32,000 nucleotides of DNA from Chloroflexia bacterium (GCA_046328475.1 JAXLWN010000067.1:4263-36262), one strand, 5' to 3'. Counted from the stretch's first letter, positions 16,515-18,450 are shown. Numbers and translations: made by a program. Notes: generated by a model from the sequence alone, not told the origin.

Positions 16515-18450
16515 ATGGCGCTCACGCCGCAGTTCGAAGCGCACGCCCGCAGCCGTGGTCGAATGGGGACGCTGCGCCTTGTCCGCGATCAGCAATGGCT
16601 GCCGGGGCGATCGACGCCCATCCTCTACCCGGTCCTGAACCTGGTGACCGGCACCACGCCCAATGGCGGGGGCATCTGGCGCTACATCGTCAACGATCTC
16701 CTCGATCACGAGCACCAGAACTCGCCGATCCTCTCCCAGGTACTGCACTTCCTCGACTTCCACCTGTTGCCGCACATGCTCAAACGCTGGCGGGGGAAGA
16801 CGCTGCGCCAGCATTACCGCGACCGGCGTGAGCCGATCGACTTCCGCGCCCCGCTTTTCCTCGACTCGGGCGGATTTAAACTCCTCTTCAAGCCCGACCT
16901 CACCCTGGCCCAATATGGACTGCTGCGCCCAGGCGAGGAGGCGGAGAGCATTCTGCGCTTGCAAAAGGACTTCGGTGGCGACCTCGTCGCTTCGCTCGAT
17001 TACCCGCTGCCGCCGAACCTCGATCCCACCGAGGCCCGCGAGCGGATGCGCCGCAGCGAGGCGAACGCCCTGCGCGCCCTGGAGTTGCTGTCGTCGGGGG
17101 ACGAGTTCGCCGACTACGCGCCTTTGCTGTACATCGCCTGCCACGGCCTGACGGCGGACGATATCGAGGACTATGTGCGCCGCACCCTGGCGGCAATTGT
17201 CGAGCGCGGGCTCCCGACGCAGGGCATCGGCATCGCGATCGGGTCGCTCGTGCCGCTACGCAGCGCCCACAAGCTGGTCGATCTCGTCGGCATTATCCAG
17301 GGCGCGTTGCGCGGCATCCCCGAGACATTGCGCGCAACCCTCCCCATCCACGTCTTCGGGGTCAGCGGCGACCTTATCCCGCTCCTGACGTACCTGGGCG
17401 TTGATTCCTTCGACAGCAGCACCTATATCCAAGCCAGCCGCTCGCTCAAGTACTACCACCCGCGCGAGCGAGATGGTTCCGGTCCTCCAACTGGAAGACT
17501 TGCCGTGCGACTGCCGCATCTGCCGCGCGCTCGACTTCGGCAAACTCCACGACACGCTGACCGCCCATCGCGATGTCTACCGACCCAGCGAACCGAAGGG
17601 CTTCAAGAGCTATTACTACGCCCAGATCGCGCTGCACAACCTGGAGATGGAGCGGCAGGTCCTCGACCGCACGCGCAAGGCACTGGAGGCTGACAGCCTG
17701 GTCGAACTCCTCGTGGAGCATGCCGAGCAATTCCCACGCCTGCAGCCCGCCCTGCAGACGATTGCGCGGGACGACGCGATTCTCTCGCCTCGGCTCACCC
17801 GGGTGGTCTACACGACCAAGCTCTTCGGCGAACGCGCTCCTCTGCCCGGGCGAAGGACCGAGGCACGCGAGCCCGACCGCCCGACCATCTCGTTGCGCTT
17901 CACCCCCGACGACTTCAAGGTGCCGCGCGACTATCATCCACCAGCAGGCCAGGATCTCCTGCTGATCGTCCCCTGCTCGGAGACCAAGCCCTACTCCGAA
18001 TCGCGCAGCCACCAGGCGCTCATGCGGCGGTTGCGGCAGGCGCTGGATGCGCCGACGCTCGCGCGAATCCACAAAATCTCCCTGTCAGGGCTGTACGGGC
18101 CGGTGCCGCAGGAGCACGAGTCGGACGAGAACGTCTTGCACTACAACTTCCTGCTCTCGCCGATGGATCACGCGCAGATTGAAGAGGATGCGAAGCGTCT
18201 CACCGCCTATCTCAAACAGCACGGCAAACACTATCAGGCGATCTTCGGCTACGCGACGAGTAAGGCCTATCGCACGGTCCTCCAGCGCGCCGGGCTGCAA
18301 CTCTACCCGCGCAAACCCGCCAGCCAGATGCCGACCGAGTTCTACCGCAACGCCAATCTCGACGAACTGGTCCAGGCGATTGCCGAGAGCGCCGGGTGCG
18401 ACGATCGCGCCGAGTTCGGGACCCCGGAGTTGCGCGGCATGGTGTCGTAA
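16515..18450 (+). CDS. TGT-family guanine transglycosylase (DpdA/arcTGT-like) fused to an ArcS-type DUF5591 domain; one apparent frameshift near 17455-17480
   Basis: TGT hallmarks:
- ARSRGRMGTL...RSTPILYPV
- FLDSGGF (16857-16877)
- GVDSFDSS (17397-17420)
- Zn motif CDCRIC (17506-17523) followed by IALHNL

The C-terminal domain has LLLIVPCSETKPYSESRSH (motif at 17971-18012), which fits PC-X3-KPY-X2-S-X2-H exactly. The two track ORFs (16431..17693 and 17401..18450) join into about 645 aa. Confidence 0.8.

Follow-up and report, generated by a model that had tools for sequence, protein, structure and literature searches.

The locus studied here raises the question of which modified base, and in which nucleic acid, would be produced by one polypeptide carrying both halves of an archaeosine-type pathway. 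The window, that is, the whole stretch of DNA analysed, comprises 32,000 nucleotides from a Chloroflexia bacterium (GCA_046328475.1, JAXLWN010000067.1:4263-36262), and the gene in question lies at 16515..18450 on the + strand. A previous inspection of the DNA, referred to here as the sequence-only reading, had proposed that this gene joins a transglycosylase of the tRNA-guanine transglycosylase (TGT) family to an ArcS-type DUF5591 domain and that its product could be a further-derivatised 7-deazaguanine. We propose that it encodes a bifunctional 7-deazaguanine enzyme which probably inserts preQ0 into DNA and forms an amidine on it within a Dpd/BREX-like system, and assign this reading a probability of roughly 0.6. 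A DNA target with a product like 2'-deoxyarchaeosine (dG+) is preferred because the operon partners are DpdH-like and BrxA-like, relatives of the gene stand beside DpdJ-like helicases and PLD nucleases, and the two halves of the structure model match DpdA2 and ArcS2 of phage nt-1.

In the window the gene is split into two overlapping + strand open reading frames (ORFs) in different frames, 16431-17693 and 17401-18450, the first matching Pfam TGT (E 1.1e-11) and the second DUF5591 (E 1.6e-13). The start ATG is at 16515, after GAGGAAAAG, and the stop codon at 18448-18450. A frameshift had been suspected within 17440-17490. By tblastn with the closest full-length homolog, the frame switch was placed between 17461 and 17471, and it corresponds to a 2-nt deletion at 17469..17472 (+, ~17470), where the window has CGAGATG while locus L083 and the intact allele P0122 have CGA AAG ATG (R-K-M). 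Across this junction P0122 reads ...HPRERKMVPVLQLEDLPCDC... / ...KYYHPRERKMVPVLQLEDLPCDC.... Once the deletion was repaired the product had 645 amino acids (aa), in agreement with the length of about 645 aa reconstructed previously and with that of P0122. Both Pfam domains were recovered in P0122: TGT (PF01702, E 2.2e-17, aa 102-408) and, beyond aa ~450 as the sequence-only reading predicted, DUF5591 (PF17884, E 7.9e-13, aa 471-593). These matches far exceed chance, and the corrected sequence is one gene with a complete TGT, neither two separate genes nor a truncated TGT.

Mapped on the window, the Pfam TGT match (barrel and zinc subdomain) spans 16818..17736 (+), the barrel proper starting upstream, near the N-terminus. 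The TGT residues are D117 (16863-16865, in FLDSGGF), D162 (16998-17000) and D297/D300 (17403-17414, in GVDSFDS), all on the + strand like the zinc ligands C332/C334/C337 (17506-17523) and H375 (17635-17637). DUF5591, the ArcS C1 core, spans 17923..18291 (+) and includes the ArcS-type motif VPCSETKPYSESRSH at 17968-18012 (+), with the full PC-x3-KPY-x2-S-x2-H pattern; a second conserved DUF5591 motif, LSGLYGPVP, is at 18082-18108 (+). The positions read earlier for FLDSGGF (16857-16877), GVDSFDSS (17397-17420) and CDCRIC (17506-17523) were exact, and the LHNL noticed with them is at 17632-17643. For the ArcS motif, its presence and its end at 18012 were right, and its start, given as 17971, was 3 nt off.

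The 2-nt frameshift is assembly noise in a metagenome-assembled genome (MAG) with heavy indels. The intact 645-aa gene was present in three independent assemblies (SRR22840551, SRR22840553 and SRR22840555), and P0122 occurred on four contigs assembled independently from public runs. All nine genes of the operon described below are intact in L083 (SRR22840551), and in L084 (SRR22840555) the operon is intact from the 3' end of the QueD gene. Both loci share ~98% nucleotide identity with the window. Comparing the window with L083 over 16 kb gave 118 gap openings to 174 mismatches, or about 0.7 indels per substitution, and the gaps clustered in 14121-16225, 18870-20243 and 23433-24234; a sister-MAG GenBank record, JAXLWR010000064.1 (L080), differed from the window at another 34 indel sites. 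This high and clustered ratio, together with the disagreement of two MAG versions, indicates consensus error and not gene decay. It could still be argued that the gene and much of the operon are a decaying pseudogene encoding nothing functional in the source organism, as the 2-nt deletion is common to two NCBI MAG assemblies, in which separate proteins of 392 and 267 aa are called, and breaks also occur in the genes for QueC, QueE and FolE2 and, within the window, in those for the 261-aa and 962-aa proteins. However, with the gene intact in three assemblies and the rest of the operon in two (L083 and L084), with tightly clustered gaps that bear the signature of error, with 34 indel sites at which window and L080 disagree, with no slippery sequence at the site and with homologs that are all single ORFs, this is very improbable. 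Both a true pseudogene and a programmed frameshift were rejected on the intact alleles and the indel-noise signature, the latter also because the site lacks a slippery sequence. The 90%-identity cluster of the truncated product itself joins a 392-aa 'hypothetical protein', a 267-aa 'DUF5591 domain-containing protein' and the 645-aa P0122. Artificially split in the window are the genes for QueC, QueE, FolE2, the 261-aa and 962-aa proteins and a UvrD-like helicase, and window coordinates of operon genes were therefore mapped from L083. Small indels are dense at 11600-12700, 14100-16250, 18850-20250 and 23400-24250, where ORF-based readings of the window are unreliable.

TGT-DUF5591 fusions form a genuine family, though a rare one. 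Among 5.8 billion proteins searched, 413 matched, the best homolog being 61% identical; among the best 120 of the 413, all but one had 560-710 aa with PF01702 and PF17884, and the exception was the truncated product encoded in the window itself. When 1.84 billion representatives at 50% identity were searched with a profile, 135 proteins reached E<=1e-30, ~60 of them full length. More than 100 full-length homologs, 600-700 aa long, have both domains on one polypeptide, which demonstrates a genuine fusion rather than an artificial joining of two genes. According to one-genome-per-species contigs, the carriers are many Poribacteria (several with two copies), filamentous cyanobacteria, Chloroflexota (Thermogemmatispora, Thermosporothrix and Chloroflexia), a Symbiobacteriaceae MAG, a Kuenenia MAG, a Blastocatellia MAG and two archaeal MAGs, as well as haloarchaeal megaplasmids. 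A search for DUF5591-only homologs returned 5 proteins under a restricting word prefilter. No description of a TGT-DUF5591 fusion enzyme was found in the literature searched.

Alignment of 35 diverse members showed an invariant residue set common to bacterial and haloarchaeal proteins. In the TGT half it comprises G51-G53, D117-S-G-G, D162, H210-G211, G243-S244, V246, P247, D297, F299, D300, S301, C332, C334, C337 and H375, and in the C-terminal domain P487, C488, K492, P493, Y494, S497, H500 and S525-G-L-Y-G529. D117, D162 and D300 align with D95, D130 and D249 of the archaeal TGT (arcTGT) of P. horikoshii, D117 and D300 being the catalytic pair and D162 the residue that binds substrate, and the Cys/His set aligns with its zinc ligands. 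Two signatures are specific to the family: H210-G211 where arcTGT has a base-contacting Q-G, and G-S-L-V-P where arcTGT has G-G-V-V-P, a segment reported to set the preference for preQ0 versus preQ1 (PMC5699537). The same signatures were present in the haloarchaeal members and in a 352-aa short TGT of the same plasmid cluster.

Comparison with known families placed the two halves consistently. In NCBIfam, the protein scored 92.2 bits with TgtA (arcTGT, TIGR00432; cut-off 350), 91.4 bits with ArcS (NF040592; cut-off 440, over model positions 142-431 of 575 only), 22 bits with bacterial Tgt (cut-off 306.75) and 16.6 bits with DpdA (NF041059; cut-off 200), and it passed the tgt_general superfamily model (66 bits, cut-off 47.6). 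A PDB profile search gave arcTGT 1iq8 (E 6.6e-26, 94 bits), AF0587 2q07 for the DUF5591 half (E 4.7e-8), bacterial TGT (~1e-5), DpdA 7ui4 (E 0.013, 17 bits) and Cap10 (E 0.038). An AlphaFold2 model (mean pLDDT, for predicted local distance difference test, 82.4; predicted TM-score 0.68) retrieved arcTGT 1iq8 and 1j2b at the top of a Foldseek search of PDB, with 584 aligned columns. Judged by these scores, the protein is a TGT superfamily member nearest to arcTGT and ArcS, below every equivalog cut-off, and the former description of its TGT half as DpdA/arcTGT-like holds for arcTGT but not for DpdA. The structure prediction matched each half to a known fold; the packing of the domains was not reliably modelled, since the linker at aa 437-462 is disordered (pLDDT <50).

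Beyond the barrel the protein has only a C1-like helical region followed by DUF5591, and it ends ~50 aa after the DUF5591 match, with no PUA, C2, C3 or other C-terminal Pfam domain. Archaeal ArcS has a TGT-like N-terminal domain before C1/DUF5591 (PMC10516641), which gives the fusion layout a precedent. This layout is best described as an ArcS without C2 and PUA whose full barrel keeps the arcTGT catalytic residues. With ArcS (TgtA2, Euryarchaeota) it shares the TGT-like N-terminal region, the C1 with a DUF5591 insertion and the PC-x3-KPY-x2-S-x2-H motif, and the same chemistry on the preQ0 nitrile would be expected. It differs from ArcS in lacking the tRNA-binding C2 and PUA domains and a RaSEA partner in the operon, in having a full-length barrel with all catalytic and zinc residues, which matches the TgtA model and not the N-terminal part of the ArcS model, and in being encoded by a bacterial or plasmid-borne gene among defence genes. 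arcTGT (TgtA, 1iq8) is the closest relative of the N-terminal 420 aa in sequence and fold, with the same catalytic Asp residues, zinc site and preQ0-type GxxVP pocket; unlike arcTGT, the fusion carries DUF5591 in its C1 and lacks the tRNA-gripping C2 and C3/PUA.

These affinities open a different reading, namely that the protein is a bacterial archaeosine-type enzyme for tRNA or another RNA, a compact arcTGT/ArcS hybrid that would insert preQ0 into an RNA and convert it to G+, and whose defence-like neighbours are coincidental or act on RNA themselves. In its favour are a TGT domain closest to arcTGT by TIGR00432 (92 bits), 1iq8 (E 6.6e-26) and Foldseek (1iq8, 1j2b), and a complete ArcS motif; moreover, preQ0 nucleoside or its 5'-phosphate suffices as the minimal substrate of ArcS (PMC11298593). 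However, no RNA-binding PUA, C2 or C3 domain is present, and the absence of these tRNA-binding modules counts in favour of a DNA target. In addition, a short TGT of the same clade from the Haladaptatus cluster scored 110 bits on TgtA, so that likeness to arcTGT is a property of the whole defence-linked clade.

The gene context bears on the same choice. The fusion gene belongs to a nine-gene + strand operon with the order YhhQ-QueC-QueD-QueE-FolE2-TGT-DUF5591-261 aa-962 aa-119 aa, in which genes are tightly spaced or overlapping; a consensus scan detected no + strand terminator- or promoter-like site inside it. The first gene encodes a YhhQ/Vut_1-type 7-deazaguanine precursor transporter (13115..13798, 227 aa, Pfam Vut_1 E 5e-51). 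It is followed by the genes for QueC (preQ0 synthase, 13832..14549, 244 aa; two window fragments with Pfam QueC E 5e-22 and 1e-17, intact in L083), QueD (PTPS family, 14546..14912, 120 aa; Pfam PTPS on the window fragment and on the L083 gene), QueE (radical SAM, 14909..15611, 245 aa) and FolE2 (GTP cyclohydrolase IB, 15657..16467, 277 aa; split in the window into two fragments with Pfam GCHY-1 E 1e-12 and 2e-26, intact in L083). QueE is unreadable in the window, with dense indels at 14953-15609 versus L083, and was recognised by the Radical_SAM match between QueD and FolE2 in L083. A dedicated preQ0 pathway thus lies directly upstream of the fusion gene, as had been read from the sequence. 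QueE is the sole radical SAM gene of the intact operon, which bears out the former observation that no other RaSEA-like partner is visible; this negative is by gene content of the intact operon, and no direct search with a RaSEA reference or genome-wide was made.

Downstream of the fusion gene, and also on the + strand, are a 261-aa protein (18475..19257, frameshifted in the window), a 962-aa DpdH-like P-loop ATPase (19259..22139, broken into four frames in the window, whole in L080 and L083) and, as last gene of the operon, a 119-aa protein in the DpdI position (22136..22495), whose start overlaps the end of the ATPase by 4 nt in L083. The 962-aa protein matched NCBIfam DpdH (NF041065, E 1.3e-19, 70 bits, cut-off 450), PADLOC DpdH (E 8e-12) and Pfam AAA_22, and by these scores it is a distant DpdH homolog; a 2025 preprint equates DpdH plus DpdI with BrxC (10.1101/2025.09.15.676423). 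The 261-aa protein had no family match and just 6 homologs were found. Its AlphaFold2 model (pLDDT 77.8) has three winged-helix-like units and matched tandem winged-helix proteins, the best TM-score in PDB being that of the BREX protein BrxA (7zge, TMt 0.49, prob 0.97, E 0.039), so it is BrxA-like by fold. The 119-aa protein had no family match either, and a homolog is present in L001. Neither protein matched anything in libraries containing DpdG and DpdI models, and the link of the 261-aa protein to DpdG is one of position and homology to a Natrinema protein only. No DpdB or DpdC was found in the window operon, and tblastn detected no YprA helicase (DpdJ-like) and no PLD or PD-(D/E)xK partner of that type in the 32-kb window.

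Genes were called in 70 loci of the family, and their neighbours were clustered and counted within 4.5 kb; YprA homologs of L043, L047, L054, L070 and L075 were added from tblastn, the L054 copy lying ~7 kb downstream of the fusion. A defence-type neighbour was found in 39 of the 70 loci. No conserved neighbour was universal, and partners differed by clade. In cyanobacteria, ten loci have a DUF262-only protein (GmrSD_N E 1.8e-23), followed in nine of them by HEPN_MAE_28990 (E 5.8e-53); this DUF262 partner, ParB-like by GmrSD_N, had no NCBIfam match of any kind, and hence none to DpdB. A ~1370-aa YprA-family helicase with an MZB domain, whose nearest NCBIfam model is DpdJ (NF041067, E 3e-49), occurs in eight loci from cyanobacteria, Chloroflexota and one archaeon and in L054. 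The 261-aa protein with the DpdH-like ATPase, as in the window, occurs in three loci (L001, L054 and the window), all with QueC and two of them with YhhQ. A PLD-SNF2 helicase resembling DrmD and DpdE was found in L031, L036 and L046, and NurA with HerA in L059 and L078. In Poribacteria, 15 loci carry a CcrM-like N6-methyltransferase, six of them also a MutH/Sau3AI-like endonuclease. YprA helicases lie near family members in L015, L058, L054, L047, L049, L070, L081 and L082, with a small PLD nuclease beside the helicase in L015 and L058, and a YhhQ homolog adjoins the fusion gene in L054, L058 and L065.

For the RNA enzyme described above, this survey offers two supporting points: about 30 loci, in Poribacteria, show stable housekeeping synteny without defence partners, and the HEPN partners of cyanobacteria belong to a class that are usually RNases. 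The Poribacterial synteny is the main observation favouring a non-defence role, possibly on RNA. On the other side, the DpdH-like, DpdJ-like, PLD, HerA/NurA and DUF262 partners are DNA-directed families, the distribution is patchy and looks horizontally spread, and some genomes and plasmids have two or three paralogs. Haloarchaea with the fusion on a megaplasmid are expected to make their tRNA archaeosine with chromosomal genes. Taking both sides together, we regard an RNA substrate as unlikely.

Two divergent fusion paralogs per cluster were observed in L054 (9914-11968, +, and 15741-18011, -; 29% identity) and in the Haladaptatus plasmid L082 (17995-20016, +, and 20730-22694, -). A heterodimer of the kind formed by eukaryotic QTRT1/QTRT2, or else two specificities, might lie behind such pairs.

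The haloarchaeal relatives connect the fusion to a system already described in outline, so that it is not a one-off. Fusions on Natrinema and Haladaptatus megaplasmids are 34-36% identical to that of the window. After the Natrinema fusion, which has 667 aa and 36% identity, come a helicase (1571 aa), proteins of 305 and 277 aa, an ATPase (969 aa), a protein of 234 aa, a DpdJ-like helicase (1340 aa, E 4e-50) and a PLD protein; the 277-aa protein, in the DpdG position before the ATPase, is a homolog of the 261-aa protein (E 7e-10). These haloarchaeal clusters match the description of BRIGADE, which was reported only in haloarchaea (10.1101/2025.09.15.676423), and a transglycosylase is not named in the part of that preprint's text and supplements available to us. 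In these clusters the TGT-DUF5591 fusion stands together with a pair of YprA helicases, a protein in the DpdG position, an ATPase and a PLD nuclease; the helicase and the 261-aa protein have homologs on both sides of the comparison. The window operon differs from BRIGADE in being bacterial and in lacking YprA helicases and a PLD nuclease, although the bacterial loci L015 and L058 have both. As a separate observation, bacterial content of BRIGADE type, with the fusion beside a DpdJ-like YprA, was seen in L015, L058, L039, L043, L047, L049, L070 and L075.

The logic of the Dpd system (DpdA/B/C with DpdD-K; PMC10164549), in which preQ0 is placed into DNA and its nitrile is then modified, would be the same, and there too the modification genes are linked to DpdH-, DpdJ- and DpdE-like proteins. 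The window operon has the composition of a Dpd/BRIGADE-type cluster, with genes that supply preQ0, an enzyme of the TGT family and proteins of DpdG/H/I type (BrxC-like). In contrast to Dpd, the nitrile-modifying module of the fusion is a DUF5591 domain attached to the transglycosylase, its expected product is an amidine and not the amide dADG, and the DpdH-like and DpdJ-like partners are far under the equivalog cut-offs.

The closest functional parallel is found in phage nt-1. Expressed in E. coli, its DpdA2 is by itself sufficient for dPreQ0 in plasmid DNA, and co-expression of DpdA2 with the DUF5591-only protein ArcS2 gave dG+ in plasmid DNA (PMC10516641). Foldseek with the fusion model retrieved the phage nt-1 TGT-like protein R9TGF0 (E 5e-9) and DUF5591 protein R9TEI9 (E 1.3e-3, prob 1.0), taken to be DpdA2 and ArcS2, respectively. 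The phage pair thus resembles the fusion in combining a DNA transglycosylase with a DUF5591 protein, and both folds are recovered by the halves of the model. It differs in consisting of two separate anti-restriction genes, whereas the fusion is one polypeptide encoded in cellular genomes beside defence genes, and the sequence similarity between them is below the reach of tblastn. No relative of the fusion was found in IMG/VR (pattern scan and tblastn) or INPHARED (tblastn); viral collections yielded only stand-alone DUF5591 proteins with weak scores, and a phage origin of the fusion was rejected on these searches.

TGT enzymes exchange guanine through a covalent Asp-ribosyl intermediate, and the following mechanism can be proposed on that basis. 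What the data above show is the domain content, the conserved catalytic residues, the structure of the operon, the recurrent defence-type neighbours and the fold matches; from these we infer that DNA is the substrate, in which order the reactions run, which product is formed, what Cys488 does and any activity in restriction. preQ0 would be supplied by the operon, either made from GTP by FolE2, QueD, QueE and QueC or imported by YhhQ. The N-terminal TGT barrel would swap guanine in DNA for preQ0, with D300 as the nucleophile of the covalent intermediate and D117 as acid/base. The C-terminal DUF5591 would then attack the nitrile of the inserted base to form an amidine, with Cys488 as the likely nucleophile by analogy with the thioimide of QueF and QueF-L (PMC5485725). 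Insertion first and conversion second is favoured because arcTGT inserts preQ0 and does not accept the free G+ base, which is unstable (PMC5485725), and because ArcS acts on ribose-attached preQ0, with preQ0 nucleoside or 5'-phosphate as minimal substrate (PMC11298593). The product of ArcS blocks reverse exchange by arcTGT (PMC11298593), so that conversion would lock the base in place; the fusion would couple both steps and make insertion irreversible. The modified guanines would serve as a 'self' mark of a Dpd/BREX-like defence module, formed in the window by the BrxA-like winged-helix protein, the DpdH/BrxC-like ATPase and the small protein in the DpdI position.

The most likely product would be dG+, an amino-acid adduct such as preQ0-Lys being less likely. 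The further-derivatised 7-deazaguanine and the DNA target put forward by the sequence-only reading therefore remain the best-supported interpretation by context and folds, in its dG+-like form rather than as a lysine adduct, and with an enzyme whose affinity is to arcTGT rather than to DpdA.

Alternatively, DNA could be modified while DUF5591 makes something other than dG+, such as dADG by hydration, dCDG or a stable lysine or amine adduct, or while it is a non-catalytic binder of the flipped base that assists the transglycosylase. The mixed products associated with ArcS2 homologs of phages and viruses are in keeping with this, as nt-1 DNA carries dPreQ0, dADG and dG+ and that of STSV2 carries dCDG (PMC6884629, PMC10516641). 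The ArcS of T. kodakarensis makes preQ0-Lys, not G+, and needs RaSEA (PMC11298593), and the operon has no RaSEA to cleave such an adduct; that of M. jannaschii is reported to use Gln, Asn or NH4+ (PMC11298593, PMC5699537). Furthermore, DUF5591 resembles DUF6884 and YaaA, proposed DNA binders and base flippers (PMC11701544), and in the second L054 paralog the ArcS motif is degenerate (AC...KPY..S..Q). However, the strict invariance of the motif Cys, Lys, Ser and His in 35 diverse members argues for catalysis, and dG+ was produced in the sole direct test that combined a DNA TGT and a DUF5591-only protein (PMC10516641). We hold a product other than dG+, or a non-catalytic domain, to be quite unlikely.

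Several points weigh against assigning the fusion to DNA amidine formation in a defence system. Its TGT half is much closer by sequence scores to tRNA-acting arcTGT (92-94 bits) than to DNA-acting DpdA (~17 bits). Salmonella DpdA needs the ParB-like ATPase DpdB, DpdC hydrating the DNA-bound preQ0 to dADG (PMC10164549), while the operon has no DpdB homolog. The nt-1 ArcS2 gave merely trace dG+ (PMC10516641). The ArcS of T. kodakarensis shows no activity unless RaSEA is present (PMC11298593), and no RaSEA-like gene is in the operon. Neither a nuclease nor a helicase belongs to the window operon itself, and 31 of the 70 loci, mostly in Poribacteria, show conserved housekeeping synteny without a defence neighbour. 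In the model, how the two domains are oriented to each other is unreliable.

The DUF5591 half can also be compared with DUF6884, described in Pfam as YaaA-like, with CxxxK and LSAxxG motifs, and predicted to bind DNA and flip a base (PMC11701544). DUF5591 of the fusion family has PC-x3-K and (T)LSGLYG in the same order as the DUF6884 motifs. A local hhalign comparison, made with a thin DUF6884 alignment, set both motifs in register (Prob 48%, E 1.8e-4), and Foldseek with the fusion model retrieved two phage DUF6884 proteins (E 7.6e-3 and 9.9e-3). DUF6884 may be evolutionarily related to DUF5591. DUF6884 was also seen paired with a TGT, in a second version of such an arrangement. On the Picosynechococcus sp. 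PCC 73109 plasmid NZ_CP014001.1 (L087), the gene at 1074-3149, annotated dpdA by PGAP, encodes 691 aa with an N-terminal DUF6884 plus TGT, and is followed by helicases and a short TGT of the clade of the window fusion; on the Haladaptatus plasmid L082, a separate DUF6884 gene (31461-31922) adjoins a short TGT. The pairing of a DNA transglycosylase with a small CxxxK domain seems recurrent, although this is suggestive only.

Known 7-deazaguanine DNA marks of bacteria are dPreQ0 and dADG, made by DpdA, DpdB and DpdC, and within the literature consulted dG+ is reported in the DNA of phages and archaeal viruses and not in cellular genomes. If DNA amidine formation by the fusion is right, dG+-type chemistry would extend to cellular genomes, with one enzyme instead of two or three and without DpdB, and would provide a compact tool for site-specific DNA hypermodification. 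The fusion would be a previously undescribed modification enzyme of BRIGADE-type clusters, which would exist in bacteria too, and a natural experiment on the recruitment of arcTGT and ArcS domains from tRNA to DNA. The database label 'tRNA-guanine transglycosylase' is probably misleading for these proteins. A wider proposal, which we advance tentatively and at somewhat less than even odds, is that one polypeptide puts preQ0 into chromosomal DNA and turns the inserted base into an amidine, either dG+ or, RaSEA being absent, a persistent amino-acid adduct such as preQ0-lysine, that the base is the self mark of modular defence systems, and that DUF5591, DUF6884 and YaaA form one base-flipping superfamily. 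Bacterial and haloarchaeal genomic DNA would thereby have its first archaeosine-type base, and the defence systems would swap restriction modules (DpdH/BrxA-like, YprA plus PLD, DUF262 plus HEPN, HerA/NurA) around one conserved modification enzyme.

Beyond the operon, two convergent genes on the - strand encode a UvrD-type helicase (22528-24810, 763 aa in L083, with AddA as the nearest model at E 8.8e-23) and a PD-(D/E)XK protein (24821-27568, 915 aa). The helicase and nuclease had been taken before as context of the fusion gene, a view that did not hold: the pair is convergent, is not beside the fusion in L001 or L054 and resembles repair pairs of AddAB/AdnAB type, and it probably lies outside the system, so that 22528-27568 was rejected as a source of system members. 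Upstream of 13000 are an ABC transporter, an FAD monooxygenase and other genes of ordinary metabolism; those at 7556-12500, just ahead of the operon, encode an isochorismatase, a PLP-dependent decarboxylase, a luciferase-like monooxygenase and a frameshifted O-methyltransferase, with no evident deazaguanine link. Rfam and ARAGORN detected no preQ1 riboswitch or other Rfam family and no tRNA gene in the window.

Eleven Poribacteria loci (L006, L014, L018, L020, L021, L022, L024, L028, L038, L053 and L074) carry, ~2.5 kb downstream of the fusion, a radical SAM gene that is KamA-like (lysine 2,3-aminomutase family), with aminotransferase and peptidyl-prolyl isomerase genes in between. This neighbour is probably housekeeping synteny and is mentioned since ArcS chemistry uses lysine and a radical SAM partner. 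Finally, the window lacks an HTH_3 gene of the kind found at two other loci: in L001 such a gene (8917-9126) overlaps the start of the fusion, and in Allocoleopsis (L002, 9364-9849) an HTH_3/DUF7662 gene is divergent upstream of it, both resembling restriction-modification controller proteins.

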